Shown here: positions 4,122 through 62,720 of the stretch, in pieces
Position numbering within the stretch: position 1 is the stretch's first letter
Layout of the letters: every line of letters begins with the position of its first letter
Assembly (NCBI RefSeq): GCF_028368995.1
Contig: NZ_JAQNDL010000001.1
Location: forward strand, 320,001 to 384,000
Origin: Nannocystis bainbridge
Lineage (GTDB): Bacteria > Myxococcota_A > Polyangia > Nannocystales > Nannocystaceae
Reading direction: 5' to 3'
Length of the DNA: 64,000 nt
Made by a program: the position numbers and the translations under genes
Notes under the pieces: generated by a model
The model's database searches: none
What the model was told of the DNA's origin: nothing
Seen by the model: the letters and a program-made list of their open reading frames with translations, nothing else

Positions 4122-4260
4122 TGTCCCGCGGGACAGCCTCACGACATGTCCCGAAAGACATCCTCGTGCACCCTCGCCCCGAAGTGCTCGAGGCCGATCG
4201 GACATGCCCCTGCGGACATGCCCCTCACGACATGCCCGATCGAGCATGTCCCTGGCGACA
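4122..4260. repeat. Array of 14-bp TGYCC-N4-GGACA units
   Basis: Units at 4122 and 4147, then four in tandem at 4205-4260 (tgcccctgcggaca tgcccctcacgaca tgcccgatcgagca tgtccctggcgaca). Confidence 0.9.
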
Positions 4261-4271
4261 TACCCGCGCGT

Positions 4272-5357
4272 TCACTTCAGCCCGCGCTGGGCCGCCCGCT
4301 TCGGCAGCGCCTTCGGCTCGGCCTGCAGCGCCCGCTCGAGCCCCTCGAGGGCGGCCCCGACGACGCCTGTCCCCGCGGACAGGTTGGCCGTCTCGACCAC
4401 CACCGTCACCAGTTGGTCGCCGGGCCGCCCGCTCTCGGACGGCACCCCTTTGCCGCGCAGTCGCAGCTTCGCCCCCGTCGCCACCCCGGGCGGCAGCTCG
4501 AGCAGCGCCGAGCCCGTCAGCGTCGGCACCGGCACCTTGCCGCCGCGGGCCGCCTCGAACGGGCTCACGAACAGCTCGCAGTGGATGTCCTGGCCCTCGC
4601 GGCGCAGCCACGCGTGCGGGCGCACGCTGACCGTCACGCGCAGGTTGCCGGGCCCGCCGCCGAACTGACCCGGCTCGCCCTGATTTTGGATCACCTTCTC
4701 GGCCCCGCCCTCGGTCCCCGCCGGCAGCCGGACCTTGAACGACCGCGCCTCACGCCTGGCCCCACGGCCGCGGCACGTCTCGCACGGATCGAGCTGGATC
4801 ATCCCCGTCCCGGTGCAGCGGCCGCAGGTCGTGTGGCGGGCCAGGAAGCCCTCGCCCTTGACCTCGCCGCGGCCGTGGCACAGCGGGCAGCCGCTCGGCG
4901 GGCGCCCGCCCGGCTTCGAGCCGGTGCCACCACAACTGGCGCACGACCCCAGCGCCTCGAACTGGATCTCGTGCTCCGACCCCAGCGCCGCCTCGGCCAG
5001 GTCGACCGTCAGCGTGTAGCGGACATCGCGGCCGCGCCGACGCTCGCGGCGCTGACGACCGAACACATCGCCGACCACCGCCGCCAGCAGGTCGCGCGCC
5101 GTCTGCATCGTCACCGGTTGATCGAACAGCCCGACCGGCAGGTGCCGCTGCCCGTCGTACCTGGCCCTCTGGACAGGATCGCTCAGCACCGCGTACGCCG
5201 TGCTGATCGCCCGGAAGCGGTCCTCCGCCTCGATGTCGCCGGGGTGGCGATCGGGGTGGCTGGCCAGCGCCAGGCGGCGGTAGTTGTGCTTGATCTCGTC
5301 GAGCGTGGCGTCGGATGCCACGCCGAGCACCGCGTAGTGGTCTTGGTGCTGCGCCAT
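4272..5357 (-). CDS. dnaJ: Chaperone DnaJ
   Basis: J domain with HPD, four CxxCxGxG zinc-finger repeats, C-terminal LRLRGKG..GD motif; follows dnaK. Confidence 0.92.
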   Translation of the reverse strand: MAQHQDHYAVLGVASDATLDEIKHNYRRLALASHPDRHPGDIEAEDRFRAISTAYAVLSDPVQRARYDGQRHLPVGLFDQPVTMQTARDLLAAVVGDVFGRQRRERRRGRDVRYTLTVDLAEAALGSEHEIQFEALGSCASCGGTGSKPGGRPPSGCPLCHGRGEVKGEGFLARHTTCGRCTGTGMIQLDPCETCRGRGARREARSFKVRLPAGTEGGAEKVIQNQGEPGQFGGGPGNLRVTVSVRPHAWLRREGQDIHCELFVSPFEAARGGKVPVPTLTGSALLELPPGVATGAKLRLRGKGVPSESGRPGDQLVTVVVETANLSAGTGVVGAALEGLERALQAEPKALPKRAAQRGLK

Positions 5358-5376
5358 GAATTTCTCGGTCCCGAGC

Positions 5377-7212
5377 TCAGGAGCTCCCGGTGGATTCGCT
5401 GCCGAGCAGCGCCGCGTAGATCTGCTGCGAGGAGCGCTCGAGGGTCAAGAGGGCCGCCTCGATCGCCGTCGCCGGCGCCGCGGTGGCGAGCAATTCGCGC
5501 AGCGTGGCGACCTCGACCGTGAGCGCCGCCCGCTGCGGCGCCTGCAGCCCCGGCAGCCCCTCGGCCGCCCGCTCGCACGCGTAGGCCAGCGCCTCCGCGC
5601 GATTTCGCAGCAGCGCCGCGTCTTTGCGGACCGCGTCGGCCTGGCGGGCCGCCGCCGCCTCGCGCGCCAGCAGCTCGACCTGCGCGCGGGTCAGCCCGGC
5701 CGCCGGCTGCACCGTCGTCGCCACCTCCGCTTCGGACCCGAGCTCACGCGCCGACACGTGCAAGATCCCGTCGGCGTCGACCTCGAACATCACCTTGATC
5801 TGCGGCAGCCCCCGCGGCGCCTCGGCGATCCCCGACAGCCGCAGGCGGGCCAGCGATTGGTTGTCGGCCGCCATCTCGCGCAGCCCCTGTTGTACGTGCA
5901 CGTCGACCGCCGTCTGACCGTCGATCGTCGTCCCGAACACCTCCGCGCGGCGGGTCGGCACCGTCGTGTTGCGCGGGATCAGCGGCGTGAACACCCCGCC
6001 TTGCGTCTCGACCCCGATGTCGAGCGGCACCACGTCGAGCAGCAGCACCTCCTCGACCTCGCCTGCCAGCACCGCGCCCTGGATCGCCGCGCCCACCGCC
6101 ACCACCTCGTCCGGGTTCGGCGACGTGTTGGGCGCGCGGCCGAAGAACTCCGCCACCGCCTCGACCACCCGCGGCATCCGCGTCTGCCCGCCGACCAGGA
6201 TCACCTCGTCGACCTCACGCGCGCGCAGCTTCGCGTCGGCCAGCGCCCGGCGGCACGGCTCCAGCGTGCGCTGGATCAGCGGCCGCACCAGCCGCTCGAG
6301 CTCGAGCCGCGACAGGCTCGCCTGCAGGTGCAGCGGCCGGCCCGCGGCCGAGGCGATGAACGGCAGCTCGATGTCCGTCGCCAGCGACCAGCTCAGCTCG
6401 TGCTTGGCCCGCTGCGCCGCCTCCTGCAGCTTCACCAGCGCCGGCCGGTCGCGCCGCAGATCGATCCCGTGCTCGCGCTTGAAGCCCTCGGCCAGGTGGT
6501 CGACCAGCGCCGCGTCGAAGTCCTCGCCGCCGAGCAGCGTGTCGCCCGCGGTCGCCAGCACCTCGAACACCCCGCTGCGCAGCTCGAGCAAGGACAGGTC
6601 GAACGTCCCGCCGCCGAGGTCGTACACCGCCACGATCTTCGGCGGCCTGTCCTTTCGGTCAGCCAGCCCGTACGCCAGGGCCGCCGCCGTCGGCTCGTTC
6701 ACGATCCGCTCGACCCGGAGCCCCGCGATCGTCCCCGCGTCGCGGGTCGCCTGTCGTTGCGCGTCGTCGAAGTAAGCCGGCACCGTGATCACCGCACGGG
6801 TCACCGGCTGACCGATCGCCGCCTCGGCCGCGTCGCGCAGCGCCGACAGCACGTGCGCGCCGACCTCCGCCGGCGCGATCGTACGGCCTCCCACCTCGAT
6901 CCACGCGTCGCCTTGCTCGCCGGGCACCACGTCGTACGTCAGCCGCGCTCGCAGGCCCGCGACCGCCGCGAAGCTGCGACCGATCAGCCGCTTGGCCGCG
7001 TGGATCGTCGTCGCCGGGCTGACCGCTGCTTGCCGCCGCGCCAGCGCGCCGACCAGGACCTCCTGGCCGGCGAACGCCACCACGCTCGGCGTCGTGCGGC
7101 TGCCCTCGGCGTTCACCAGCACGCGGACCTCGCCGCCGTCCATCACCGCGGCGCACGAGTTGGTGGTGCCGAGGTCGATGCCGAGGATCGGGCTCGGTCG
7201 CGGACCGGCCAT
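5377..7212 (-). CDS. dnaK: Hsp70 chaperone DnaK (divergent paralogue-like)
   Basis: [49 protein letters not shown] and LLLDV linker. Confidence 0.92.
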
Positions 7213-8934: not shown

Positions 8935-9075
8935 TCGATCCGCATTTACCTCGTCTCGCCCCCGGACGCCAGCAGGCGCGCGCGTGCCCCCCGCAAACCC
9001 GCGCCGACCGCTGTCACCCGCGCCGCCGCGCCCGAACCCCTCGCCCGCCCCGGCCCGCGCGTCCCCTCACCCCAA

Positions 9076-9420
9076 GCCCGAAATCATTCGCCCGTCTCGG
9101 ACTCGCGCCCTCACCCCGCCCCGCGAGCCCGAAATCAGTCGCCCGTCTCCGACTCGCCCGTCATCCCCCCGCGAGCCCGTAATCACGCGTCCGCCCCGAC
9201 TCGCGCCCTTCTCGCCCGAAATCAGTCGCCCGTCTCCGACTCGCACCCATCCCCCCACTCGCAATCACTCGCCCGCCCCACCCGCGCCCCGCTCGGCCGA
9301 AATCAGTCGCCATCACGGATTCACCCCTCACCCCGCTCGCTCGCAATCATTCGCCCACCCCCGACCCGCGCCCCTTCACTCACCGCCTCGCCCGAAATCA
9401 TTCCTCCGCCCCCGCCTCGC
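9076..9420. repeat. Degenerate array of about 8 copies of a ~31-bp unit (GCCCGAAATCAGTCGCCCGTCTCCGACTCGC)
   Basis: Copies start near 9076, 9127, 9175, 9214, 9257, 9295, 9339 and 9390, separated by short C-rich linkers. Confidence 0.85.
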
Positions 9421-9425
9421 GCCCC

Positions 9426-10442: not shown

Positions 10443-10451
10443 CCGCGAAGT

Positions 10452-10466
10452 ATCGCAGAAACTGAT
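10452..10466. promoter_or_regulatory. Putative LysR binding box ATC-N9-GAT
   Basis: ATCGCAGAAACTGAT in the short AT-rich spacer between divergent lysR and pirin; fits the T-N11-A LTTR pattern. Confidence 0.55.
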
Positions 10467-10527
10467 GGAAGGCATCACATCTTCAGCGATTTACAGCATA
10501 AAAACCCGCGTCATGATGGGGCACGTC

Positions 10528-11231: not shown

Positions 11232-11273
11232 TGTCCGTGAGGACATGCTCCACAGAGCATGTCCTCACGGACA
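11232..11273. repeat. Array of three 14-bp units
   Basis: tgtccgtgaggaca tgctccacagagca tgtcctcacggaca, 5 bp after the pirin stop. Confidence 0.9.
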
Positions 11274-12266: not shown

Positions 12267-12294
12267 TGTCCGAACGGTCATGTCCCAAAGGACA
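12267..12294. repeat. Two 14-bp units
   Basis: tgtccgaacggtca tgtcccaaaggaca, next to the hemW stop. Confidence 0.8.
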
Positions 12295-12300
12295 TGACCA

Positions 12301-13479
12301 TCACGCCAGCAGGTCGGCTGCCACCGCGTCGTGCCAGTACCAGCGGCCCGGCGCGATCCGCAGCACCTGCCCCTCCGCCGCCCACTCGAGGTTCCCGCGC
12401 GCCACTTGGCGGCGCGTGCGGTGCTCGATCCACCCGCGCGTCACCGCAGGGAACCGGCGCAGGTACGCCCCCACGTCGAGCCCCCGGAGGTCGCGCAGGC
12501 CCGTCCACAGCCCCTCGATCGCCGCCGCCTCCGGCGTCAGGCGCTCCGCCTCCGCCGGCGTGCCCGGGTCCGCCAGCCACGTCGGCAGCCCGCGCACATT
12601 GCCGCGGCGCAGCACCGACCCGTCGGCGAAGTAGCGGGCCGAGTGGGCCGACGGCCCGAGCCCGAGGTAGTCCTGCCACGTCCAGTACAGCAGGTTGTGC
12701 TGTGCCTCCGCGCCTGCGCGCGCATAGCTGGCCACCTCGTAGTGCTGCAGCCCCGCCGAGGTCAGCGCCTGCTCGGCCGCGGCCAGCATGTCGGCCTGGT
12801 GATCGCTGTCGGGCAGGCGTCGCTTGCCGCGGCGGACCAGCGTCGGCCACGGCGTATCGGCCTCGATCGTCAGCGCGTACACCGACACGTGCTCCGCGCC
12901 CGCCTGCGTCAGCCGGGCCACATCGGCCTGCACGCCCGCCGCCGTCTGCCCTGGCCAGCCCACGATCAGATCGGCGCTCACCCGCAGCCCCGCCTCCACC
13001 GCCGCTGCGATCGAAGCCAGCGCCTGCTCCGGCGAGTGGACCCGCCCGAGCGTGCGCAGCCCCTCCGCCTCGGTGCTCTGCGTCCCCAGCGACACCCGCG
13101 TGCCGCCGATCGCCCGCACCGCCGCGTACAGCGAGGGGTCACCGTGCTCGGGGTTCACCTCGACCGTGAACTCGCGCGCCCCGGCCCCCGGGAACCGGCG
13201 CGCCAGCCACTCGCCCAGTTGCGCCAGCCCGGCCGGCCCGAGCAGGCTCGGTGTCCCGCCGCCGAGGTACACCGTCGACCATGGCGCATCGGCCAGGTCC
13301 GAATCGCCAGGTCCTTCGGGACATGTCCATTCCGCCAGCTCTTGCCCCCGCCCGCTCGCCTCGCGCTCGAGCCCGGCGATGAACCCCGCGACGTCCGGCG
13401 TGCGTCCGACCTGGAAGTCGAAGTCGCAGTACGGGCAGGCCCGGGCGCAGAACGGCACGTGGACGTAGATCCCCCGCAT
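12301..13479 (-). CDS. hemW: Radical SAM heme chaperone HemW
   Basis: IYVHVPFCARACPYCDF (CxxxCxxC), YLGGGTPS, and the HNLLYW motif that distinguishes HemW from HemN. Confidence 0.88.
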   Translation of the reverse strand: MRGIYVHVPFCARACPYCDFDFQVGRTPDVAGFIAGLEREASGRGQELAEWTCPEGPGDSDLADAPWSTVYLGGGTPSLLGPAGLAQLGEWLARRFPGAGAREFTVEVNPEHGDPSLYAAVRAIGGTRVSLGTQSTEAEGLRTLGRVHSPEQALASIAAAVEAGLRVSADLIVGWPGQTAAGVQADVARLTQAGAEHVSVYALTIEADTPWPTLVRRGKRRLPDSDHQADMLAAAEQALTSAGLQHYEVASYARAGAEAQHNLLYWTWQDYLGLGPSAHSARYFADGSVLRRGNVRGLPTWLADPGTPAEAERLTPEAAAIEGLWTGLRDLRGLDVGAYLRRFPAVTRGWIEHRTRRQVARGNLEWAAEGQVLRIAPGRWYWHDAVAADLLA

Positions 13480-13644: not shown

Positions 13645-13728
13645 TGGCTCCAAGAACATGCACTCTCGGCCATGCCCGGGCGGACATGTCCCTTCGGGCA
13701 TGCCCGAGAGGACCTGCGCGAACGGCCA
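13645..13728. repeat. Array of six 14-bp units
   Basis: tggctccaagaaca tgcactctcggcca tgcccgggcggaca tgtcccttcgggca tgcccgagaggacc tgcgcgaacggcca. Confidence 0.9.
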
Positions 13729-18104: not shown

Positions 18105-19112
18105 GTGCTAGCGTCGGCCTCGACCTCGCCGCCGATGCTCCCGCCGCTGTACGGCCGCTGGATCTCCGACCTGCTCGGAGGGCCATTACCCGAAGAACAG
18201 GCCGCGACCTGCGGCGACTGCGTGCAGTGTCACAGCCACGTGCCCGAGGGCTACCGGTTCGCCGACGCCACCAAGTGCTGCACCTACGTCCCGGCGCTGC
18301 CCAACTTCCTCGTCGGCGGCGGGCTCAAGGCCGGCTCGCTCGCGGGGCGTGAGCGCCTGCTGCGACGCATGGTCGCGCAGCCGGACAGCATCACCCCGCA
18401 CGGGCTCGACGCCACCGAGGACGAGCGCGGCCGCTACCGCGACATCCTCGCTGCCGAGCAATTCGGCCGCGACCCGTCCCTGTTCTGCCCCTACTACATC
18501 GACGAGGCCGGCGGCCTGTGCGGCGTGTGGCGCAATCGCAACGGCATCTGCGCCACCTGGTACTGCAAGCACGATCGCGGCGCCGCCGGCCAGCGGTTCT
18601 GGCAGGCGCTCGAGGTCCTGCTCACCGCCGTCGAGCGCGAGCTCAGCCACTGGTGCGCCTGCACGATCTTGTTCGAGGAGACCCCGCAGGTCGAAGACGG
18701 CGAGTCGGCGTGGAGCTGGTGGTCGGGCCGCGAGGCCGAGTTCTTCCGCCGCGCCGCCGAGCTGGTCGAGGCCCTCGAATGGTCGCAGGTCGAGGCCCAG
18801 ATCGGCGCCGCGATCGAGACCCAGCTCGGCGAGCTGCTGGCCGCCCACGCCGCGCTCGCCGGCCCGCTGCCTGACTCCCTGCAGCTCGGCACGATCCGCG
18901 TCTCGCACCGCGGCGACGAGCGCAGCCGCGTCGTCACCTACCTCGACACCGACGCCCTCGAGCTGCCGACCGCCCTGCTCGACCTCCTGCCCCGCTTCGA
19001 CGGCCGCCCCACCGGCGCCGTGCTCGCCGAGCTGCGCGCCCTCGGCGTCGAGGTCTCCCCGGCCCTGCTGCGCATGCTGGTCGACTTCGAGCTGCTCACC
19101 GACGCGGCCTGA
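18105..19112 (+). CDS. Cys-cluster protein (YkgJ/CxxCxxCC-like, putative metal-binding)
   Basis: CGDCVQC, TKCCTY, CPYY..GLCGVW..R..ICATWYC; alternative ATG at 18135. Confidence 0.6.
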   Translation: MLASASTSPPMLPPLYGRWISDLLGGPLPEEQAATCGDCVQCHSHVPEGYRFADATKCCTYVPALPNFLVGGGLKAGSLAGRERLLRRMVAQPDSITPHGLDATEDERGRYRDILAAEQFGRDPSLFCPYYIDEAGGLCGVWRNRNGICATWYCKHDRGAAGQRFWQALEVLLTAVERELSHWCACTILFEETPQVEDGESAWSWWSGREAEFFRRAAELVEALEWSQVEAQIGAAIETQLGELLAAHAALAGPLPDSLQLGTIRVSHRGDERSRVVTYLDTDALELPTALLDLLPRFDGRPTGAVLAELRALGVEVSPALLRMLVDFELLTDAA

Positions 19113-19165
19113 ACATTCGGACATGCGCGATGAGACATGCCTGAAAAGGCATGCACTTTTGGACA
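19110..19165. repeat. Array of four 14-bp units beginning at the stop codon
   Basis: tgaacattcggaca tgcgcgatgagaca tgcctgaaaaggca tgcacttttggaca. Confidence 0.88.
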
Positions 19166-19522: not shown

Positions 19523-20167
19523 GTGGCGCTGTCCCTCCGGACATCCTCACCTGTCCTCCTCGCCGGCCTCCTCGCCTGCGGGGACGCTGGCGAGCCCGCG
19601 ACCCCGGTCGTCGCCAGCACCGGCGACGTACCGGCTGACCCCGTGGCCCCGGCCGACCCCCCGCCGGCGCCCGACCCCTTCGCCGCCGAGGGCATCGAGG
19701 CTGCGCGCCCGGGGCTGCGCTTCGGCTGGCCGGTCGAGAGCCCGCACATCACCTCGTACTTCGGCTGGCGCACCAACCCGATGACGGGCGTCGGCACCAA
19801 GCTGCACCGCGGCCTCGACCTGCGCGGCGGGATCGGCGACCTGATCCTCAGCATCGGTCCTGGCGTGGTCCAGTTCGCCGGTCAGGACCTGCTGCTCGGC
19901 AACCTCGTGATCATCGACCACGGCCTCGGCGTCACCTCCTACTACGGGCACATGCACGACATCCTGGTCCACGTCGGCCTGCCCGTCGATCGTGGCACCG
20001 CCCTCGGCCTCGTCGGCAACACTGGCCGCAGCGAGGCCCCGCACCTGCACCTCACCGTCAAGATCGGCGCCCTCGCCGTCGACCCGCTGTGGCTGATCGG
20101 CGCCCCGCTCCACGGCTACCCCGGCCTGCCCGCGCTCGCCGAGGCCGACACCGACGCCGAGTACTAG
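19523..20167 (+). CDS. M23 family metallopeptidase lipoprotein
   Basis: LLAC lipobox; HRGLD, YGH and GNTGRS..PHLH. Confidence 0.92.
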   Translation: MALSLRTSSPVLLAGLLACGDAGEPATPVVASTGDVPADPVAPADPPPAPDPFAAEGIEAARPGLRFGWPVESPHITSYFGWRTNPMTGVGTKLHRGLDLRGGIGDLILSIGPGVVQFAGQDLLLGNLVIIDHGLGVTSYYGHMHDILVHVGLPVDRGTALGLVGNTGRSEAPHLHLTVKIGALAVDPLWLIGAPLHGYPGLPALAEADTDAEY

Positions 20168-20234
20168 CTCTCGGGACATGCCCTCCGGCGCATGTCCAGA
20201 CGGACATGCACTTATGGACATGTCTTGAGAACCA
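20165..20234. repeat. Array of five 14-bp units beginning at the stop codon
   Basis: tagctctcgggaca tgccctccggcgca tgtccagacggaca tgcacttatggaca tgtcttgagaacca. Confidence 0.88.
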
Positions 20235-22104: not shown

Positions 22105-22219
22105 TGTGCATCGGGACATGTCCTCTCCGACATGTCATCGCCCGTGCGCAGACCCATCGGGCGTGTCCACCCTCGGATGTCCGCCAGGACATGCCCTTCG
22201 GAACATGTCCTCTCCGACA
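22105..22219. repeat. Two blocks of 14-bp units
   Basis: Two units at 22105-22132 and four at 22164-22219. Confidence 0.88.
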
Positions 22220-25036: not shown

Positions 25037-25120
25037 TGCCCCTCGGGACATGTCCTTTTGAGCCTGTCCCTCGGGTCATGCCCATGCGAACATGTCCTCG
25101 CGGACCTGTCCGCACGGGCT
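25037..25120. repeat. Array of six 14-bp units
   Basis: tgcccctcgggaca tgtccttttgagcc tgtccctcgggtca tgcccatgcgaaca tgtcctcgcggacc tgtccgcacgggct, abutting the carA stop. Confidence 0.9.
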
Positions 25121-29830: not shown

Positions 29831-29872
29831 TGACCGCGGGGACATGCGCGAAGGGACATGTCCCTTCGCGCA
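29831..29872. repeat. Array of three 14-bp units containing a long perfect palindrome
   Basis: tgaccgcggggaca tgcgcgaagggaca tgtcccttcgcgca; ACATGCGCGAAGGGACATGTCCCTTCGCGCATGT is self-complementary. Confidence 0.88.
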
Positions 29873-31999: not shown

Positions 32000-32083
32000 T
32001 GTCCCTTTCGCCATGTCCTTACAGGCATGCCCTAAAATACATGCCCGTAAGCACATGTCCTCCAGGGCATGCCCCAAAGTTCT
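32000..32083. repeat. Array of six 14-bp units
   Basis: tgtccctttcgcca tgtccttacaggca tgccctaaaataca tgcccgtaagcaca tgtcctccagggca tgccccaaagttct. Confidence 0.9.
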
Positions 32084-32118: not shown

Positions 32119-33804
32119 TTAAAGACCTTCGAGGTGGGCCCGCTGGACGATCCGCGCGTCGAGCGTCACATAGCCGCGCGGGCCGGCGCACAGGCGCACC
32201 GGGCTGAGGTCGACCAGCTCGAGGCGGCCCTCGCTGTCGACGCTGGCGACCCCGAAGTGGCGGACCAGCGCGTCGAGGCGGAGGAACAGCCCCGCCAGCT
32301 CGCGCAGCCCCGGGTCGTCCTTGCGGCGCAGCGGCACCCCCGCGACGATCGCCTGGGCGAACAGCATCGCCTCCGCCGGATCGAGCGGCGACAGCCGCAG
32401 CACCACCTCGTGGTGGCCCGCCAGCGCGCGCCCGAACAGCGCCGTCTCGCCGCTCTGCAGCGCCACCGCCCCGCAGTGGATCTCGAGCCCCTCGCCGATC
32501 TGCTCGGCCACCAGCACGCCGTCGAGGTGGGCCGTCGGCGCCCGCTCCTCGACGTTGGCCACGACCGTCGCGTAGGCCCGGCGGACCGCCGCCGAGGTCG
32601 TGAGATCGAGGACCACCGCCCCGAGCTCCTGCTTGCGCCGCAGGTCGGGGCTGACCGCCTTGAGCACCACCGGGAACCCGATCTGCTCGGCGAACTGGGC
32701 CGCGCCGCTGGCCGAGCCGGCCACCGCCTGGCGCGTCACCTCGATGCCGAAGCCGCGCAGCACCACCTTGCTCTCGTGCTCCGACAGCGCCTGCCCGGCC
32801 GAGCGCAGCACCTCCTCCGCGCGGGCCAGCGCCGCCGGATCGATCACCGGCGTCGGTTCGTCGGCGGCCGCGCGGACCAGCGCCTCGGCGCGCTCGCGGC
32901 GGAGCAATGCCCGCTGGGCCAGGAACGCGTCGGTCGTCGCGCTCGCCGGCCCGCGCAGGCGCAGGCCCGGGTGCGGCGCCGCCATCCCCGGGTCGTCGGC
33001 CTGCAGCGGCAGCGCCCGCTGCGCCTGGCGCCACAGCGCCGCCTGCGAGGCTGCCTCTTCGGACATGCCCTCGGCGACATGCCCCGAAGGACCTGTCCCC
33101 GGCGACATGCTCTGCGCGTCGAGCAGCAGCGCCAGCACCCCCGGGCTCGGGAACACCGGCCCCGTCAGCCGCTCGAGCGCGTGGGCGGCCGCCACCTGGC
33201 CGAGCGACGGGTGGCGCGGCTGATCGATCCGCGGCGCCTCGACCCCGAGCGGCACCACCACCTGGCGCGCCCCGGCGGTGCCGGCCCAGCGGGCCCAACC
33301 CGCGTGCAGGCTCGCCACTGGCACCATGCCCGCGACACGGCAGCCGGCCAGCTCGGGCGCCGCCAACCACTCGGACAGCCACGCCAGCGCCGGGCACAGC
33401 GACAGCCGCGGCTGCACCCCGGCGGCCACGAACGCGGCCCGCAGCCCCGCCAGCGCCCCCGCCTCGGGCCCGACCAGCACCAGCTCGCCGGCCTCCACCA
33501 TCACCTGCGCCGCCGGCCCGAGCACGCGCGACGTCAGCCCGACCGGCAGCTCCGGCCCCGTGATCACCAGCAGCGCCGGCGGCCGCTCGCGCAGCGCTCG
33601 CAGCAGCGTCGGCGACGGCTCGCGCGCGACCACCACCACCGCGCCCTGCTCGCGAACCCGCCGGGCCAGCGCCGCCTCGCCGAGCACCTCGCCGGCGCCG
33701 ACGAACGCGGCCCCGACGTCCTCGCCGACCAGCGCCTCGCCGGCCAGCAGCGCCCGCAGGGCCGACCTGGCCGGAGAGACAGATCGATCGGGAGCCGTCA
33801 CCAA
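32119..33804 (-). CDS. Protein with a C-terminal acetate-CoA ligase (ADP-forming) beta-type ATP-grasp domain
   Basis: LSEHESKVVL..FGI, IGFPVVLKAVSPD, GVLVAEQ and DLSPV..TLDARI. Confidence 0.75.
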   Translation of the reverse strand: MVTAPDRSVSPARSALRALLAGEALVGEDVGAAFVGAGEVLGEAALARRVREQGAVVVVAREPSPTLLRALRERPPALLVITGPELPVGLTSRVLGPAAQVMVEAGELVLVGPEAGALAGLRAAFVAAGVQPRLSLCPALAWLSEWLAAPELAGCRVAGMVPVASLHAGWARWAGTAGARQVVVPLGVEAPRIDQPRHPSLGQVAAAHALERLTGPVFPSPGVLALLLDAQSMSPGTGPSGHVAEGMSEEAASQAALWRQAQRALPLQADDPGMAAPHPGLRLRGPASATTDAFLAQRALLRRERAEALVRAAADEPTPVIDPAALARAEEVLRSAGQALSEHESKVVLRGFGIEVTRQAVAGSASGAAQFAEQIGFPVVLKAVSPDLRRKQELGAVVLDLTTSAAVRRAYATVVANVEERAPTAHLDGVLVAEQIGEGLEIHCGAVALQSGETALFGRALAGHHEVVLRLSPLDPAEAMLFAQAIVAGVPLRRKDDPGLRELAGLFLRLDALVRHFGVASVDSEGRLELVDLSPVRLCAGPRGYVTLDARIVQRAHLEGL

Positions 33805-36687: not shown

Positions 36688-37797
36688 ATGCCTTCGCTCC
36701 CGATCACCCTCGAGGCCGCCCTGCGCGACGCGCGGTCGCCCGATCCGACGTCTCGCAGCGTCGCCGTGCGTCACCTCGCCGCCGCCCTCCTGGCCGAGCT
36801 CGGCGACCCCTCGCCCGCCCTCGACCTGGCGCGTGGCCACGCGCTCGGCGAGGCCGTCGTCGCCGCCCTGACCGCCGCGCTCGACGATCCGCAGGTGCCC
36901 GTCCGGGCCATGGCCGCGACCGGCCTCGGTCAGCTCGGCGAGCCTGCCGTCATCGCCCGCATCGACCCCTGGCTGCAGGACCCCGACCCCGGGCCCGACG
37001 CTGGTTACCTGCGCGAGTGCGCCGCCATCACCTGCGTGCTCCTCGGCCTCGCCTCGGCCCCCGAGCACCTCGTCAGGGCCGACGACGGCGAGGGCACCCG
37101 CCCCACCGAGGCCCCGCCGGCCGCGCCGCATCCCTTGCGTCCTCCGGGACATGTCCCGAGCGACCTGTCCCGAGTCACCTACGAGGCCGCGCTCGCGCGC
37201 ATCACCGCGGCCCTCCGCGCCCCCGCGCCCGACCTGCGGTTCCAGGCCGCCGGTGGCCTCGTCGAGCTCGCCGGTCGCGCCGCCGAGCCGGCCCTGTGCG
37301 CCGCCCTCGACGGCGAGAGCCACCCGCACGTCCGCCTCGCCCTCGTCAGCGCCCTCGCCGAGCTCGACCCGCCGGGGTCCGAGGCCTGCGCCCGCCTCGC
37401 CGCCGTGGTCGCCGATCCCGGCGCCGCCGTCGAGCTCGCCTTCGCCGCCGCGCTCGGCCTCGCCGCCGCCCGCGACCCGAGCGGCGGCCCGCCCCTCGTG
37501 CTCGGTCTCCAGCGCTCCGGCGACCGCGCCCGCGCGCTCGAGGGCCTCGCCGCGCTCGGGCTCGCCGCCCCGCCGGCCGCCGTCCCGCTGGCCCTCAAGC
37601 TCGCCCGCGCCTGGCTCACCCCGTCCGTCATGCGCGTGCGCGCCGCCTACGCCCTGGTCCGCATGGCCCCCGAGACCGGCCAGCCGCTGTTGGACGAGTT
37701 CGCCCGCAGCCGCCGCCCCGCCGTCCAGGAGGCCGTCGCCGACGCCCGCGCCGCCCTCGCGCAGCTGACTCTTCAGGACATGTCCAAGCGGACATAG
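36688..37797 (+). CDS. HEAT repeat protein
   Basis: ALDDPQVPVRAMAATGLGQLG, LRFQAAGGL and VRLALVSAL. Confidence 0.75.
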   Translation: MPSLPITLEAALRDARSPDPTSRSVAVRHLAAALLAELGDPSPALDLARGHALGEAVVAALTAALDDPQVPVRAMAATGLGQLGEPAVIARIDPWLQDPDPGPDAGYLRECAAITCVLLGLASAPEHLVRADDGEGTRPTEAPPAAPHPLRPPGHVPSDLSRVTYEAALARITAALRAPAPDLRFQAAGGLVELAGRAAEPALCAALDGESHPHVRLALVSALAELDPPGSEACARLAAVVADPGAAVELAFAAALGLAAARDPSGGPPLVLGLQRSGDRARALEGLAALGLAAPPAAVPLALKLARAWLTPSVMRVRAAYALVRMAPETGQPLLDEFARSRRPAVQEAVADARAALAQLTLQDMSKRT

Positions 37798-37850
37798 TCT
37801 TTAATACATGTCCAAACGGGCATGCCTCGAAGGACATGCACGAGCGGACG
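37781..37850. repeat. Array of five 14-bp units overlapping the stop codon
   Basis: tgtccaagcggaca tagtctttaataca tgtccaaacgggca tgcctcgaaggaca tgcacgagcggacg. Confidence 0.88.
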
Positions 37851-40180: not shown

Positions 40181-40197
40181 GACCGCGCCGACGAGCA

Positions 40198-40462
40198 TGT
40201 CCATCAGGACATGCTCGTTTCGACATGTCCCTGAGGACCGCCTGCATCTCGTCGCTCCCGCTGACGAAGCCGCGGCGGTCTGCCTCGAGAAAGCGAGCGA
40301 TCAGGCGACAACTGCTGCGCGTTCGACGGCATGGGGCTCGCACCGCAGCGCCGGTTCAAGCGAGTGGACCTCGCTCGGGCAGTCGCGTCACATGCTCGTT
40401 CGAACATGACCCTTCGGACATGCTCGTTCGAACATCCCCCGGCGAACATGCCCCCGCGGACA
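40198..40462. repeat. Two blocks of 14-bp units between convergent genes
   Basis: Three units at 40198-40239 and five at 40393-40462. Confidence 0.88.
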
Positions 40463-40479
40463 TGTCCCCCCGCCCCGGC

Positions 40480-41028: not shown

Positions 41029-41078
41029 GCGAAAATCGGGGCTCTCGCGCATCGTCTCGCTCTCCCTGCTCGCTCGCT

Positions 41079-49789: not shown

Positions 49790-50962
49790 ATGGCAGGCGA
49801 CCCTCCACCCACGCCGGGGGCCGAGCCCGGGCCCGGCCTCGTCGGAGTCCTCGGCCACGCGCAGGCCCAGGGCGCCGTGGTGCGCGCGCTCGGGCGCGGT
49901 CAGCTGCACCATGCGCTCGTGCTCGTCGGCCCGCGCGGGGTCGGCAAGGCGACCTTCGCCCGCGGCCTCGGCTGCGCCCTCCTGTGCCCGCAGCGCCCCG
50001 GCCTCGGCTGCGGCGCCTGCCCCACCTGTCAGCGCGTGCTCGCCGGCAACCACCCCGACGTCGACTGGCTGGTGCCCGACAGCAAGGCCGGCCTGATCTC
50101 CGTCGACGCCGCCCGCGCCTGCCACGTGCGCCAGACCCACGCCCCCTACGAGGGCCGCGCGTATCTGGTCGTCGTCGATCCGGCCGACGCGCTCGGCGAG
50201 GCCGCCGGCAACGCCCTGCTCAAGACCATCGAGGAGCCGCGCCCCGGGGTCCACTTCGCCCTGCTCACCACCAACCTGCAGGGCATGCTGCCGACGATCC
50301 TCAGCCGCTCGCTGCCGGTCCGCCTCGGCCGCCTCGACGACGACATCGTCCGCAGCATCGTCGACCGCCGCGCCGCCGACGCGCCGCGCGAGCGCCACGA
50401 CATGGCCGTGCTGCTGGCCGAGGGCAGCGCCGGCGTGGCCCTCGAGCTGGCGTCCGACCCGTCGCTCGCGCGCAGCCTCGAGCTGGTCAAGCAGGCCATC
50501 CTGGCCGTGCGCGCCGGGCCCTCGGCGATCTTCGGCGGCGACGTCCACCCGCTGTGGCAGGCGTGGGCCGCAGCCACCGCCCCGAGCGAAGCTGTCCCCG
50601 AGGACAGCCCCGCCGAGCCCGAGCCCGAGGTCCCCGGCGCCAAGAAGAAGAAGGCCAGCAAAAAGGCCGCCAAGTCCGGCGAGGACGGCGAGAAGGCCGC
50701 CAGCAAGAAGGACGCGCCGGCCCTGCAGCGGGCCGCGGTGCGCCGCCTGGTCGAGCTGTGGATCCTCCACGTCCGCGAGCAGCTGCGCGGCCGCGCCGGC
50801 CTGCCGGGCCTGCCCCCGCCGCCGAACGTCGCGCCCGGCACCCTGGTGGCCGCCATCACCGCCCTGCAGCGCCTCGGCGCCCGCGTCGAGCGCATGGGCA
50901 ACGTCCGCCTGATGCTCGAGCAGGGCCTGCTCGAGCAGAGCGCCCTGCTGTCCGCGCCCTAG
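49790..50962 (+). CDS. holB: DNA polymerase III subunit delta'
   Basis: GPRGVGKAT, zinc module C..CGACPTC, GNHPD, NALLKTIEEP and LPTILSR. Confidence 0.88.
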   Translation: MAGDPPPTPGAEPGPGLVGVLGHAQAQGAVVRALGRGQLHHALVLVGPRGVGKATFARGLGCALLCPQRPGLGCGACPTCQRVLAGNHPDVDWLVPDSKAGLISVDAARACHVRQTHAPYEGRAYLVVVDPADALGEAAGNALLKTIEEPRPGVHFALLTTNLQGMLPTILSRSLPVRLGRLDDDIVRSIVDRRAADAPRERHDMAVLLAEGSAGVALELASDPSLARSLELVKQAILAVRAGPSAIFGGDVHPLWQAWAAATAPSEAVPEDSPAEPEPEVPGAKKKKASKKAAKSGEDGEKAASKKDAPALQRAAVRRLVELWILHVREQLRGRAGLPGLPPPPNVAPGTLVAAITALQRLGARVERMGNVRLMLEQGLLEQSALLSAP

Positions 50963-51029
50963 CCCCGAGGACATGTGCCCGGGGACATGCTCCCGGGGAC
51001 ATGCTCTCTACGACATGTCCTGAGATGGA
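50960..51029. repeat. Array of five 14-bp units beginning at the stop codon
   Basis: tagccccgaggaca tgtgcccggggaca tgctcccggggaca tgctctctacgaca tgtcctgagatgga. Confidence 0.88.
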
Positions 51030-52514: not shown

Positions 52515-52740
52515 TGCCCCTCGGGACATGTCGCCACGAACCTGCCCTTTCACGTCCGTGCCGCACCAGCTCGCTGGCGCCTGCCCCTCGGGACATGTCC
52601 CGACGAACCTGCCGCACGCACATGCCCTTTCGCGTCCGTGCCGCTCCGCTCGCGCCTGCCCATCGGGACATGTCCCAGCGCACCTGCCCCCACGGACATG
52701 CCCTTGAGAGCATGCCCGATCGGACATGCCCCATCGAACA
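52515..52740. repeat. Cluster of 14-bp units with a higher-order ~70-bp triplication
   Basis: TGCCCMTCGGGACATGTC at 52515, 52582 and 52657; six phased units at 52657-52740. Confidence 0.88.
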
Positions 52741-52743
52741 TGC

Positions 52744-53694
52744 TCAGTGCAGCAGCGTCGACACCACGCGCGCCCCTGGCCCGACCTGGTCGACCAGCCC
52801 GCTCCCGGGCACCCCGGCGTGCGTGAAGCTCTCCTCGAGGATGCCGAGCAGCGCCTCTGCGCGGCCGCGCGAGCCGGCCAGCGCGAACGTCGTCGGGCCC
52901 GAGCCGCTGATGCTGCAGGCCAGCGCGCCGGCCTCGCAGCAGGCGGCCTTGGCTTCGAGGTAGCCGGGGATGAGGCCGGCGCGGCACGGCTCGACCAACT
53001 CGTCGACGATCGCCTCGCCGAGCAGCGCCAGGTCGCCGACGTGCAGCGCGTGGACCAGCAGCCCGAGGCGGCTCGCCTGCTGCACCGTCGCCTGCAGCGG
53101 CACCTGGGCCGGCAGCACCGCGCGGGCCTCGGCCGTGCTGACCGAGCAGCCCGGGGTGTACACCGCCAGCCACAGGTCCGCGGGGCTCGGCAGCGCAATC
53201 AGGCGCAGCGGGTCGAGCTGCGGGATGAGCACCACGCCGCCGAGGATCGCCGGCGCCACGTTGTCGGGGTGGGCCGCGCCGCAGGCGACGCGCTCGCCCT
53301 CGCGGGCCAGGTCGACCAGCTGCGTCGGCTGCAGCCCGAGCCCGAGGGCCGCGTCGGCCGCCACCAGCGCCGCGCAGGCGCTCGCGCCCGACGATCCGAG
53401 CCCGCTGCCGAGCGGCAGGCCCTTGTGGACCTCGAGCTCGACCCCGGCGTCCGGCGCGTAGCGGCGCAGCAGCTCGGCCACGGCCACGCCCGCGGTGTTC
53501 TTGTCGGCGGTGCGCGGCAGCTTGCCGCCGTCGCCCTCGACCTTGACGATCGTCACGCCCGGCCCCTCGGCCCGGCGCGCGCGCACGCGGTCGCCGGGGC
53601 CGCGCAGGGCCAGGCCGAGGCAGTCGAAGCCGGGTCCGAGGTTCGACACCGTCGCGGGCGCGAACGCCTCGATCCATGGTCGCGGTCGTGACAT
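52744..53694 (-). CDS. thrB: Homoserine kinase
   Basis: PATVSNLGPGFDCLG, PLGSGLGSS, HPDNVAP and ISGSGPT. Confidence 0.96.
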   Translation of the reverse strand: MSRPRPWIEAFAPATVSNLGPGFDCLGLALRGPGDRVRARRAEGPGVTIVKVEGDGGKLPRTADKNTAGVAVAELLRRYAPDAGVELEVHKGLPLGSGLGSSGASACAALVAADAALGLGLQPTQLVDLAREGERVACGAAHPDNVAPAILGGVVLIPQLDPLRLIALPSPADLWLAVYTPGCSVSTAEARAVLPAQVPLQATVQQASRLGLLVHALHVGDLALLGEAIVDELVEPCRAGLIPGYLEAKAACCEAGALACSISGSGPTTFALAGSRGRAEALLGILEESFTHAGVPGSGLVDQVGPGARVVSTLLH

Positions 53695-56925: not shown

Positions 56926-58545
56926 ATGGGCAGCCAGACCGCATCGCGGCGGCAGACCGTGTACGCCCTCGCGATCGCCCTGGTCGCCGGCATCGTCCTG
57001 CTCGTCGTCTCGCAGGTCGCGCTGGCGTGGATGACCGGTGAGCCGCTGCAGCGGACCGCCGCCGTGGTCGCCGGCCTGGTCGCGCTGGTCCAGGTGCTCG
57101 CGGTCTACATGTCCGCGAGGACAGGCCTGGTCGAGACCGCCGGGCGCGACGCCGTGCGGGTGTTCGTCATCGCCCCGCCGGCCGCCCTCGTGGTCGCCGT
57201 CCCGCTGCTGTGGGGCAGCGTCTTGCAGACCACCAGCGTGCCGGCGCTGCTGCCCTCGCTCGGCCCGGTGCTCGCCGCCGTGTGGGGCGTCGCGCTCGCG
57301 CTCGCGCCCGCCTGCATGGCCGCCTACCAGCACCTCGGCGGCGACCCGCGGCCCGCCTCGCGCGACGAGTACCAGACTGCCCTCGCCGCCTGGTGCTCGC
57401 TGTTCGCCAGCGCAGTCAGCTCCGCGGGCGTCCTGGCGACCGGGCGGATCCTCGCCGCCGCCGCCCCCGAGGCCACCTCGCGCGAGCTGTGGCCCGCGCT
57501 CGGCCTCGCCGTCCTCACCGGTCTGTTCGCCCGCGCCGGCGGTCTGTTCGCCCGCGACACCGGCGGCGAGGTCCTCGCGCTCGCGCGCCGGCTCGACCGC
57601 GTCAACATCGACACCGCCGCCGGCAGCCGCCCGCTGGTCATCACCCGCGTCGATCGCCTCGGCGCCCTCCAGGCCGAGCTCGAGCGCCTGCGCCGCGACC
57701 TCGTCGGCGAGCACCGCCTCTACAAGGAGACCCTGCTGCAGACGCGCGAGGCCGCCGAGGCCAAGGCCGAATTTTTGGCCGCCGTCAGCCACGAGCTGCG
57801 GACCCCGCTCAACTCGATCTGCGGCTTCTCGCAGCTGCTGCTCGAGGGCCTCTCGACCCCGCTGTCCGACGAGCAGCGCGAGGACATCCGCCTGATCCGC
57901 ACCAGCGGCATGCAGCTGCTCGGCCTCATCAACGACATCCTCGACATCTCGATGATCGAGTCCGGCGAGCTGCGCCTCTACTTCGCCTCCGAAGATCCCG
58001 CCGACATGATCGACGAGGTCTGGCGCCAGCACCGGCCGCTCGTGCAGGAGACCGGCCTGGAGCTGCGCACCGAGGTCCCCGGCGACCTCCCGCGGGTCGT
58101 GTGCGACCGCCGGCGGATCTGCCAGATCTTGAACAACCTGCTGTCGAACGCCACCAAGTTCACCGAGAAGGGCTCGATCATCATCGCCGCCGCGTTCGAG
58201 CCGCTGCACGGGCGCGTGCTGATCCGCGTCACCGACACCGGCATCGGCATCGCCCCCGAGGACATGGAGAAGATCTTCCAGGAGTACCGCCAGGTCGGCA
58301 ACCTCGCCCAGCGCAAGAAGGGCACCGGCCTCGGCCTGGCGATCGCCCGCAGCATCGCCAACCACCACTCCGGCTCGCTCGAGGTCAGCTCCAGCCCCGG
58401 CCGCGGCTCGACCTTCACCCTCTCGCTGCCGCTGACCCCCCCGCGCAAGCCGACCTCGATCGACATGACCGAGGAGGCCGTGCGCGCCAGCCAGCGGTTC
58501 TGGAACCCGCGCAGCTCGTCGCAGAACGGGGAGGCCGACGCGTGA
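56926..58545 (+). CDS. Membrane sensor histidine kinase
   Basis: About 6 TM helices; H box [10 protein letters not shown] box [15 protein letters not shown] and GTGLGL. Confidence 0.94.
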
Positions 58546-61082: not shown

Positions 61083-61166
61083 TGAGCCTTTGGAAATGCT
61101 CTAAAGGACATGTCCAAAAGATAATGTTCATTTCGACATGCCCTTCACGACATGCCCCAAGGGCCA
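61083..61166. repeat. Array of six 14-bp units
   Basis: tgagcctttggaaa tgctctaaaggaca tgtccaaaagataa tgttcatttcgaca tgcccttcacgaca tgccccaagggcca. Confidence 0.88.
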
Positions 61167-61337
61167 TCTCATTCCGTCCGCGCCGCGCGCCGCGCGGACG
61201 GCCGTCCGTCTCGGACACATCTCCGCGCGCCCGCGCGCACGCTCGCGCGATCACGCGCCGGAAATCGGCGCAGGCTTGCGCGTTGAGCCGCGCAGCGGCC
61301 CGCCTCTATACTGACCGGCGCTGTCTCGGCGAGGCCC

Positions 61338-62408
61338 GTGTCCCAGGAACACCCGCACACTGCCATCGCCCTTCACGCTGTCGGCCAGGAGCTGCGGCGT
61401 CAGGGCAAGTTCGAAGAGGCCCTCGATCACTACCATCGGGCGCTCGCGCTGCAGCGGACCGTCCTCGGGACCAAGCACCCGTACACCGCCAGCACCCTGT
61501 CGGCGATCGGCCAGATCCTGTTCACCCAGGGTCAGCACGTCGCCGCCCTCGATCACCACCGCCAGGCCTTCTCGATCAAGCGCGAGCTGCTCGGCGCGGG
61601 CCACATCTTCACCGCCAACTCCCTGTTCGACCTCGGCCTCGCGCTGTTCGCCGCCGGCCAGCGTGAAGAGGCGCTGGCCGCCTACACCCGGGCCCTCGCC
61701 GTCCAGCTGCGCGCCCTCGGGCCCGGCCACGCGCGCACGATCAGCACCCAGCAGGCGATCGGCGAGCTCCTGCTCGCCGAGGGTCACTTCGCCGACGCGC
61801 TCAGCCACCTCCACGCCGCGCTCACCGGCCTCGAGCAGATGCGCGCCGCCGCCGATCCTGCCGACATCGATCGCCGGCTGATCCCCGTGATCGTCGGCGT
61901 CGGTCAGGTGCTGTTCCAGCAGAACCAGTACGCCGAGTCGCTGGTCCACTACCAGCGCGCGCTCGGCCTCGCCGAGACCCATCGCGGGCCCAACCACGAG
62001 GACACTCTCGGCGTTCTCCACGACCTCGGCCGCGCCCGCGGTCGCGCCGGCGACGTCGAAGGCGCCCTCGATGCCTTCCAGCGCAACCTCGCCGGCCTGC
62101 GCGCGCTCTACGGCGAGAACCACGCCCGCGTCGCCGCCACCCTCAACGCCATCGGCCAGATCCACTACGGCCGCGGCGAGCACCGGGCCGCCCTCGACCA
62201 TTACCGCCAGGCCCTCGAGATCCGCCACCGCGTCCTCGGCTCCGAGCACTGGCTGACCGTCAGCTCGCGCTTCAACTGCGGCACCGCCCTGCGCGAGCTC
62301 GGCGACCCCGTCGGCGCCGTCGAGATGGGCCGCGCCGCCGAGGCCCTCGAGCGCCTCCTCGGCTCCGAGCACCCGCACGTGCAGTCGACCCGCTCCTGGC
62401 TGCGCTGA
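61338..62408 (+). CDS. Tetratricopeptide repeat protein (42-aa kinesin-light-chain-type repeats)
   Basis: Repeated AL..Y.RAL....LG..HP.TA motifs. Confidence 0.88.
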   Translation: MSQEHPHTAIALHAVGQELRRQGKFEEALDHYHRALALQRTVLGTKHPYTASTLSAIGQILFTQGQHVAALDHHRQAFSIKRELLGAGHIFTANSLFDLGLALFAAGQREEALAAYTRALAVQLRALGPGHARTISTQQAIGELLLAEGHFADALSHLHAALTGLEQMRAAADPADIDRRLIPVIVGVGQVLFQQNQYAESLVHYQRALGLAETHRGPNHEDTLGVLHDLGRARGRAGDVEGALDAFQRNLAGLRALYGENHARVAATLNAIGQIHYGRGEHRAALDHYRQALEIRHRVLGSEHWLTVSSRFNCGTALRELGDPVGAVEMGRAAEALERLLGSEHPHVQSTRSWLR

Positions 62409-62720
62409 GCCGGCCGCGCCCCGATGCACGGGGGTTCCGCCGACCTGTCCCGAGGGACACTCGGATCGCTGGCCGCGCCGTCGTGCTCCGCCTCGGCTTC
62501 ACCAGCCTCACTCCCCTCGCCGCTGACATGTCCCGGAGGACAGATTCATCCTCGCACCGCGCAGTTACTTCATTCGTAACCTCGCCAGACACCCGATCGC
62601 GTCGAGATGCTCTTCGAGACAGGTTGGTCGCGCCGAGCGCTCCTCCACTTCGAATCGCGCCGGCAGCCGGCCTACCGGCCCGCGGTTGACCCGCTCACCC
62701 GCGCGAAGTATCACCGGCAC

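Follow-up and report, generated by a model that had tools for sequence, protein, structure and literature searches.

Palindromic arrays in a 64-kb window of the Nannocystis bainbridge genome

The window analysed here is a 64-kb stretch of the Nannocystis bainbridge genome (C1:320001-384000), in which arrays of a 14-bp palindromic unit, TGTCC-N4-GGACA, recur at the ends of genes. The genome comprises 11.05 Mb in five contigs (71.5% G+C, 90.5% complete by marker genes). Genes were predicted with our own codon-usage scorer, a crude caller that returned 8,046 genes covering 84% of the genome; within the window its calls agreed with Pfam for dnaJ, carA, TerC, squalene-hopene cyclase, GHMP kinase, pirin, M23 peptidase, OPT transporter and phosphoribosyltransferase. 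All nine of these Pfam-backed genes carried an array at the stop codon or no more than about 30 bp behind it, and for seven of them the distance was within 6 bp. Successive units abut head to tail at a CA|TG junction, as in the six units at 25037-25120, which read tgcccctcgggaca/tgtccttttgagcc/tgtccctcgggtca/tgcccatgcgaaca/tgtcctcgcggacc/tgtccgcacgggct. The motif is a real, very strong and genus-wide feature for which no description was found.

The form TGYCC-N4-GGACA gave 60 strand-matches in the window, corresponding to 36 distinct sites, compared with a mean of 0.27 and a maximum of 3 in shuffled sequences. When TGTCC-Nk-GGACA was scanned genome-wide for k = 0-15, 1,987 matches were obtained at k = 4 and at most 19 at any other k; the looser TGYCC-N4-GGRCA occurred in 2,828 copies, and the junction GGACATGTCC was found 956 times. 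Distances between perfect units peaked genome-wide at 14 bp (114), 28 bp (83), 42 bp (82) and 56 bp (40), and those between CATG tetranucleotides at 14 bp (3,736), 28 bp (2,073), 42 bp (1,586) and 56 bp (751), over a background of about 100-300. Within the window, 48 CATG pairs were 14 bp apart, compared with none at 13 bp. A first-pass annotation of this DNA had predicted both the spike at k = 4 and the CATG peaks at 14, 28 and 42 bp, and all the clusters that it named were present in the sequence. CATG itself was not avoided (observed/expected 1.23 genome-wide) and was ordinary outside arrays. Among other tetranucleotides, CTAG was strongly under-represented genome-wide (observed/expected 0.13, first-order model), and TCGA (1.94), GTAC (1.68) and AGCT (1.67) were over-represented against the same type of model.

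Arrays were chained in 14-bp steps from seeds matching at least 9 of the 10 fixed positions, with neighbours matching at least 7 of 10. This yielded 1,423 arrays of at least three units, compared with 0, 2, 2 and 6 when steps of 12, 13, 15 and 16 bp were used. Single units numbered 3,847, and arrays of two, three, four, five, six, seven and eight units numbered 1,365, 604, 186, 319, 204, 75 and 28, respectively, with five arrays of nine units and one each of 11 and 12 units. The distribution of sizes therefore dips at four units and has a second mode at five to six. The annotation had placed the longest arrays at six units, which proved too short: the window holds a seven-unit array (52657-52754) and the genome maximum is 12 units. 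Its list of six-unit arrays was also incomplete, with more at 4191, 40393 and 48887 (Table 1).

Table 1. Arrays of the 14-bp unit and perfect single units in the window, with their gene context (plus and minus refer to the strand of the gene)
Feature	Coordinates in the window	Context
6-unit array	4191..4274	Convergent gap; ends at stop of dnaJ (4272-5357, minus)
3-unit array	11232..11273	6 bp past stop of pirin-type gene (9889-11226, plus); outer units mutually reverse-complementary
3-unit array	12267..12308	Convergent gap
6-unit array	13645..13728	Just downstream of stop of gene 13735-14448 (minus)
4-unit array	19110..19165	First unit opens with TGA stop of gene 18240-19112 (plus)
4-unit array	20165..20220	Overlaps stop of M23 peptidase gene (19523-20167, plus)
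2-unit and 5-unit arrays	22105..22219	Downstream of OPT transporter gene (22250-24076, minus)
6-unit array	25037..25120	Abuts stop of carA (25120-26310, minus)
3-unit array	29831..29872	Just behind end of TerC-family gene (28854-29828, plus)
6-unit array	32000..32083	Fills convergent gap; arrays of relatives at this place have non-alignable units
4-unit array	33052..33107	Inside predicted ATP-grasp gene 32119-33801 (minus), about residues 232-250; equal length in G005
3-unit array	37138..37179	Inside HEAT-repeat gene 36688-37797; 42/42 positions identical in G005
2-unit and 3-unit arrays	37767..37850	At end of HEAT-repeat gene (36688-37797, plus)
4-unit array	40184..40239	4 bp past stop of squalene-hopene cyclase gene (38186-40180, plus)
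6-unit array	40393..40476	Abuts stop of phosphoribosyltransferase gene (40480-41052, minus)
6-unit array	48887..48970	Gene context uncertain; flanking gene starts poorly called
5-unit array	50960..51029	Convergent gap; overlaps stop of dnaX-like gene (49151-50962, plus)
Two 2-unit arrays and 7-unit array (52657-52754)	52515..52754	Abutting stop of GHMP-kinase gene (52744-53649, minus)
6-unit array	61083..61166	233 bp downstream of histidine-kinase gene (58751-60850, plus)
Perfect single unit	57110..57123	Inside histidine kinase gene 56926-58545
Other perfect single units (starts)	4122, 4368, 19530, 24986, 30410, 36518, 36555, 38767, 44587, 44666, 44746, 45030, 50593, 62446, 62529	

Placement at gene ends

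Genome-wide, 1,509 of the 8,046 predicted genes, about a fifth, had an array of at least three units within 300 bp after the stop codon. The distance from stop to array peaked at -3 (100 genes, whose TGA stop opens the first unit) and again at +2 to +8. In the window, the TGA with which the array at 29831 opens (29831-29833) is also the stop of an open frame (28982-29833) overlapping the TerC-family gene. The 633 arrays of at least five units were found in convergent gaps (366), tandem gaps (197), genes (59) and divergent gaps (11). Arrays of at least three units occupied 546 of 1,425 convergent gaps (437 of 876 when only gaps of 60-300 bp are counted), 451 of 4,368 tandem gaps and 43 of 1,447 divergent gaps, with none in the 382 divergent gaps under 150 bp. 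Short convergent gaps were spanned by the array over 83-86% of their length. In tandem gaps, the array began a median of 17 bp behind the upstream stop and ended 164 bp before the next start.

The clusters had been described as intergenic in the first-pass annotation. This holds for most arrays, which lie in gaps, but not for the 653 perfect single units located at least 30 bp inside predicted genes and evenly spread along them. As three units make 42 bp, or 14 codons, arrays in frame are also possible; the window has a four-unit array (33052-33107) and a three-unit array (37138-37179) inside predicted coding sequence.

Arrays were present on all five contigs, with no density gradient and no shift at the GC-skew switch at C3:1.5 Mb. 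The Noc/SlmA/MatP-like organiser put forward in the annotation was not borne out, as no ori/ter density pattern was detected and the placement followed gene structure (behind stops, absent from short divergent gaps). The placement is that expected of a gene-end element and not of an organiser site linked to ori or ter.

The only gaps in this spread were a few islands nearly devoid of the motif (C1:1.1-1.3 Mb, C1:0.5-0.6 Mb and C5:0.4-0.5 Mb). Per 100 kb they held 0-3 arrays and 2-11 perfect units, compared with genome averages of about 13 and 28, respectively. Their G+C content was slightly lower (69-71%) and their gene sizes were normal; the GC skew was near zero only in C1:1.1-1.3 Mb. These islands are probably acquired DNA.

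Unit consensus and array composition

The consensus of the left arm was T (.90), G (.97), T/C (.68/.20), C (.82), C (.79) and that of the right arm G (.79), G (.83), A/G (.65/.22), C (.97), A (.91), so that the unit is symmetric. The four central spacer bases were variable, with a centre that was A/T-enriched and symmetric, as in many dimer operators.

That neighbouring units differ in the middle, as noted in the first-pass annotation, was supported by the spacers, of which only 3.3% were identical between adjacent units (lag 1; 4,769 pairs). The corresponding values were 4.0% at lag 3 and 1.3% for random pairs, and the excess at both lags therefore points to occasional duplications of one or three units. 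Spacers two units apart were fully complementary in 4.3% of cases compared with 1.2% of random pairs, which gives some long hairpins of three units (e.g. 11232-11273). A super-period of 42 bp (three units) was only weakly apparent, with a correlation of junction types of 0.32 at lag 3 compared with 0.15-0.18 at lags 1-2. Four consecutive spacers were common to another array in 13 of the 1,423 arrays (0-2 in shuffles), located in duplicated regions near contig ends, and three consecutive spacers in 92 arrays (30-48 in shuffles).

One region of the window combined the unit with a longer repeat: between the YndJ-like and DUF7305 genes (44585-45076), a local 80-bp tandem repeat with a 40-bp sub-period was present in about 3-5 copies, each with a long-stem unit CCTGTCC-GCAA-GGACAGG. 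BLAST found this 80-bp repeat at no other place in the genome.

Conservation of arms without hairpin covariation

Across 6,192 array units, the Watson-Crick observed/expected ratio was 0.99-1.01 for all five arm pairs, and compensated arm changes occurred at 0.69-1.21 times expectation. A need for pairing, in RNA or in single-stranded DNA, would lead to matched changes in the two arms, and the changes were not matched. The junction palindrome likewise lacked covariation, with a mild avoidance at positions 12|3 (0.88) as the sole exception. This anti-correlation is visible in the window at 4205-4260 and 52685-52740, for example, and the junctions GGACATGCCC and GGGCATGTCC were favoured over perfectly palindromic decamers, so that the hexamers ACATGT and GCATGC were relatively avoided.

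The sense-strand spacers had no strand bias (TTCG 112 vs CGAA 111; GNRA 137 vs 128 for the complement). Among gene-internal units, the wobble-compatible variant was not favoured (80 vs 105). A TTTT run within 20 nt followed 3.5% of 482 tandem-gap arrays; hence the T-run that accompanies the GC-rich hairpin of an intrinsic terminator was absent, though the predicted folding was strong. What is conserved is the word and not the pairing.

Conservation between species and selection

The window region was syntenic in five same-genus genomes at 84-93% identity, and 400 kb each from two of them (G005 and G010) were compared with the corresponding part of C1. Among the 68 arrays of at least three units in this part, 34 had both flanking anchors in G005 and 36 in G010. 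G005 had an array of at least three units at the corresponding place for 22 of the 34, and G010 for 24 of the 36; no array was present there for 8 and 6, respectively. The spacers of the persisting arrays had turned over: in orthologous gaps of equal length (9 and 10 cases, 72 units), the arms were 87.5% identical and the spacers 70.5%, with whole spacers often replaced. Over all positions, aligned and unaligned, the identical fraction was 0.43-0.44 for arms and 0.30-0.31 for spacers; other intergenic DNA reached 0.26-0.27 and coding DNA 0.51-0.55. Changes by steps of 14 bp, which the annotation had anticipated, were hardly seen, as only 1 of 25 and 1 of 26 non-zero differences in orthologous gap length were multiples of 14. 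In the window, the array at 25037-25120 had an orthologous multi-unit counterpart in each of the five relatives compared, and in four of these the units could be aligned one by one; arrays with different units occurred in relatives at the 22105-22219 site.

The strongest evidence of selection came from the perfect units inside genes. These units were about 20-fold over background, as spacers of the same codon phase (k = 1, 7, 10 and 13) gave 23-33 copies genome-wide. They occupied the three codon phases unequally (379, 214 and 60), with two phases preferred. In the first 900 kb of C1, 51 such units were present, of which 20 could be aligned with G005 and 19 with G010. At third codon positions, 74 of 76 arm bases matched G005 and 68 of 72 matched G010, compared with a third-position baseline of 84.5%. 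For arm A/T bases at third positions, identity was 22/22 and 19/21, compared with 32-49% for A/T third positions overall and with 13/35 and 16/38 (37-42%) for isolated half-sites in genes. Because synonymous arm bases were kept in whole units and not in isolated half-sites, the complete unit is under purifying selection at the DNA level, independently of the encoded protein.

Distribution within Nannocystis

A 21-mer form of the pattern was found in all ten other same-genus genomes (1-92 matches) and in none of 30 genomes of other genera in the family and class, a set that includes 14 other genera of the family. A 19-mer form occurred 311 times in the genome of the window and at most once in any of the 400 genomes sampled from the phylum. 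When a 24-mer form was searched in a species-level genome collection, 64 of the 78 loci listed were in Nannocystis records, 11 in records of Nannocystaceae/Myxococcales metagenome-assembled genomes, and the other three were single hits in unrelated records. Judging from these searches, the motif is confined to the genus Nannocystis. No comparable dominant dyad was detected in other genera of the family in a small sample of 200 kb of G024 and one 42-kb contig of G022. The density of the 21-mer varied about ten-fold within the genus: 5, 1 and 15 matches were found in the 6.6, 4.5 and 5.3 Mb of G002, G004 and G006, respectively, and 59-134 in same-genus genomes of 11-13 Mb.

No description of the motif was found in the full-text literature on myxobacterial and Nannocystis repeats, old subscription papers and scans being outside this coverage. 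Neither "Myxococc" nor "Nannocystis" occurs in the main text of a 2025 survey of repetitive extragenic palindromes (REP; PMC12306157). The genome announcement of one species speaks of "complex and large repetitive regions".

Search for a cognate protein or enzyme

Forty-one arrays lie in divergent gaps, and the 27 proteins flanking 14 of these gaps (9 of the 11 arrays with at least five units, and 5 with small neighbouring genes) were scanned for a cognate gene. The DNA-binding domains among them were limited to a BlaI/Penicillinase_R-type repressor, an XRE helix-turn-helix and an NtrC-type activator, none of which stands out. Likewise, among the 44 window proteins scanned, the HU/IHF-type, MerR-type and HrcA-type proteins were all ordinary. 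The contrast between motif-rich and motif-poor genomes of the genus could be used to seek the cognate gene.

A gene for a REP-associated tyrosine transposase (RAYT), which the annotation had suggested looking for, was not found: the Y1 transposase family (PF01797) had no match in the five-contig genome, although 6 of 14 control genomes were matched. The Vsr repair nuclease (PF03852) also had no match in this genome. This result and the lack of CATG avoidance are the observations that bear on the methylation-linked motif listed among the alternatives in the annotation.

Other repeats in the window

Two further repeats were present in the window. Upstream of the hrcA-grpE-dnaK-dnaJ cluster, at 9075-9439, overlapping 51- and 87-bp tandem repeats unrelated to the 14-bp unit were found. 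Inside a predicted gene without a Pfam match (62607-63875), a tandem repeat with periods of 18, 36 and 54 bp (about 11 copies of the 18-bp period) lies at 63618-63812 and is presumably a coding repeat of low complexity, rich in Ala and Pro.

A putative dimeric protein at the ends of transcription units

We infer that the unit is the double-stranded DNA (dsDNA) recognition site of a putative dimeric, genus-specific protein that would form cooperative coats at the 3' ends of transcription units, and give this reading a probability of about 0.5. The sequence TGTCC-N4-GGACA would be read as dsDNA by a predicted two-fold symmetric protein, each half-site being recognised by its sequence and the four central bases being largely free. 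The abutting units with their CA|TG junction would place the dimers side by side in a 14-bp register, about 120 degrees apart, and the resulting short cooperative coat would typically comprise five to six dimers (70-84 bp). Such coats would begin at the stop codon, where the transcription unit ends, and would be kept out of promoter regions. They may serve as boundaries against read-through or as shields between convergent genes, possibly managing supercoiling, and the single gene-internal sites would be bound individually.

A dimeric dsDNA binder with touching neighbours is suggested by the fixed 5-N4-5 dyad, by arms held at consensus without covariation and by free A/T-rich centres, and also by the symmetry with respect to transcription, the selection on synonymous sites and the abutting of sites in one register. 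The role at the end of transcription units is suggested by the placement. A symmetric sequence-specific dsDNA binder is thus favoured over a hairpin, as arm covariation and spacer strand bias are both absent, the arms are kept while the spacers are free, and synonymous sites are kept. The cooperative loading of a DNA-binding protein proposed in the first-pass annotation is therefore retained as regards a symmetric dsDNA binder, the binding itself being deduced from sequence, and is abandoned as regards an organiser-type placement.

Several points weigh against the dimeric-protein reading. Arrays on the stop codon (100 genes) fit a hard roadblock poorly, because polymerase would stall before the stop is transcribed, and transcription would also run into the bound sites inside 653 genes. 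Once transcribed, an array is strongly self-complementary, and because the consensus is self-complementary, array regions fold very stably as predicted RNA (median z -4.25, with 93% below -2). Array-free convergent gaps are structured as well (median z -1.67, compared with 0.04 for divergent gaps), and on the sense strand of tandem gaps the U-G-compatible variants are in small excess over the C-A variants (1,272 vs 1,072). An RNA-level contribution at 3' ends is therefore possible. The absence of covariation is weaker evidence if both arms are held near a self-complementary consensus. Moreover, the orthology samples are small, G005 and G010 are not independent, gene positions come from a crude caller, and both the binder and its binding are putative.

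In a bolder and improbable version of this reading, the genus-specific protein would polymerise as a three-fold screw of dimers, marking about 1,500 transcription-unit ends as protein-made boundaries. These boundaries would act as terminators, insulators or supercoiling barriers, with the single gene-internal sites as secondary anchors. Eukaryotic rRNA genes are followed by repeated sites for a terminator protein, and the arrays would be the counterpart of these in bacteria; we know of no genome-wide, sequence-coded marking of gene ends in bacteria.

Alternative explanations

The arrays could instead act at the RNA level, as 3'-end modules in which transcribed runs of hairpins, or composite hairpins, terminate transcription or protect mRNA 3' ends, the genus building its terminators from one repeated palindromic brick. 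The placement behind stops, the enrichment in convergent gaps, the absence from promoter-only gaps, the very stable predicted folds, the structure of array-free convergent gaps, the three-unit hairpins formed by complementary spacers two units apart and the slight U-G excess on the sense strand are all in line with such a module. It is nevertheless considered unlikely, as none of the arm pairs covaries, the spacers have no strand-wise preference for tetraloops and the T-run is absent after arrays. In addition, gene-internal units are kept by sequence with no favouring of the wobble variant, and it is the sequence of the arms that is conserved, not merely their ability to pair.

Molecular drive is a still less likely explanation. 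[quoted passage not shown] The motif is indeed genus-specific and hyper-abundant, is conserved within genes in preferred codon phases, and is rare in the lower-GC islands, which have normal gene sizes. The same mix of over-representation and conservation is reported for HIP1, the cyanobacterial highly iterated palindrome (abstract of PMC5861425), for which a role as uptake signal is now proposed (abstract of PMC13756078). Drive alone, however, fails to explain the strict 14-bp register or the mode at five to six units, no Vsr-type repair nuclease was found in the genome, and CATG is ordinary outside arrays.

A selfish palindrome of the type of REP and bacterial interspersed mosaic elements (BIME), which a dedicated transposase would spread in the form of a single-strand hairpin and which would be tolerated nowhere but behind genes, is very unlikely. 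Extragenic location, palindromic structure, clustering, lineage specificity, 3'-end placement and the occasional duplications of one or three units would suit it. Of four features that define the REP-like class suggested in the annotation, though, only the extragenic placement was found, as the RAYT gene (in a genome 90.5% complete), the stem covariation and the near-identical copies were all missing, the arrays being unique with few exceptions (13/1,423). Moreover, 653 conserved copies lie inside genes, in which inserting 14 bp would cause a frameshift, and many arrays stay at orthologous places across species.

A microsatellite or slippage repeat was rejected, in agreement with the annotation, as near-identical neighbours are expected and the units and arrays are nearly all different (adjacent spacers matching in 3.3% of pairs), and mobility of whole arrays was rejected as only 13 of the 1,423 arrays have four consecutive spacers in common with another.

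Significance

Textbook terminators are largely missing from high-GC bacteria such as myxobacteria, and the way in which their transcription units end is poorly understood. In Nannocystis, the same 14-bp word stands in strict register behind about a fifth of the genes and is under purifying selection even at synonymous positions inside genes. This points to an abundant putative factor that has thousands of targets in the genome and is a protein or, possibly, a system of another kind. If the factor were found, it would add a new DNA-binding specificity in which cooperative arrays are part of the design, and would give access to the biology of gene ends and to chromosome organisation in a group mined for natural products. 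It would also supply boundary parts, compact and orthogonal, with which these organisms could be engineered. Beside HIP1 of cyanobacteria, the motif is a second, independent case in which to ask why hyper-abundant palindromes are maintained in genomes.

Comparison with known systems

For a phase-locked array, the best mechanistic model is that of tandem operator boxes bound cooperatively by small dimers. The met-boxes of MetJ, the heptads of the omega repressor and the iterons of ParR-parC are short units arranged head to tail with no spacer; every unit takes up one dimer, which is in contact with the dimers next to it. These arrays are found at one or a few promoters or partition sites, whereas about 1,400 arrays are present here, at gene ends and excluded from promoters. 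Regional organiser sites (Noc NBS, SlmA SBS, MatP matS) differ by their confinement to, or exclusion from, the ori or ter region, neither of which was observed here.

REP/BIME elements (Escherichia coli, Pseudomonas; RAYT) are similar in being short extragenic palindromes with hundreds to thousands of copies, lineage-specific and clustered, and also in lying behind genes and between convergent genes. In E. coli, REP elements bind proteins such as gyrase and IHF. They differ in the length of the unit (20-40 bp compared with 14 bp here) and in that the units here abut without spacer in one strict register, with no arm covariation, RAYT or near-identical families, and with conserved gene-internal copies. 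In another myxobacterium, Myxococcus xanthus, a repeat with a core of about 87 bp was reportedly described between ops and tps by Fujitani and co-workers in 1991; like the present motif, it is an intergenic repeat. Outside Nannocystis, the present motif did not exceed 0-1 copies per genome in the 400 genomes sampled from the phylum.

The uptake sequences USS (Pasteurellaceae) and DUS (Neisseriaceae) are genus- or family-specific motifs present about once per kilobase, within genes in tolerated frames, and their inverted pairs behind genes double as terminators. They are asymmetric 9-12-mers, without the fixed-spacer dyad or the arrays of five to six abutting units found here.

HIP1 (GCGATCGC) is over-represented and conserved both inside and between reading frames, according to the abstract (PMC5861425), and is now proposed as an uptake signal (PMC13756078). 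Its function is presented as unsettled in these abstracts, nucleoid structure or DNA uptake having been proposed (PMC5861425, PMC13756078). Like the present motif, it is a hyper-abundant, lineage-restricted palindrome, genic and intergenic, with a conservation that argues for selection; over-representation by at least an order of magnitude and in-frame conservation beyond the need of the protein were both found for the Nannocystis unit. As described in the same abstracts, HIP1 is a contiguous 8-mer tied to two methyltransferases, whereas the motif here is bipartite (5-N4-5). The abstracts mention neither tandem arrays nor a placement behind stops, and the present motif has both. Overall, the Nannocystis motif belongs to the broad class of hyper-abundant lineage-specific palindromes that includes REP/BIME, HIP1 and USS/DUS, and differs from each of these in that its unit is bipartite and repeated head to tail in strict register, in that it is coupled to stop codons and in that its arms show no hairpin covariation.

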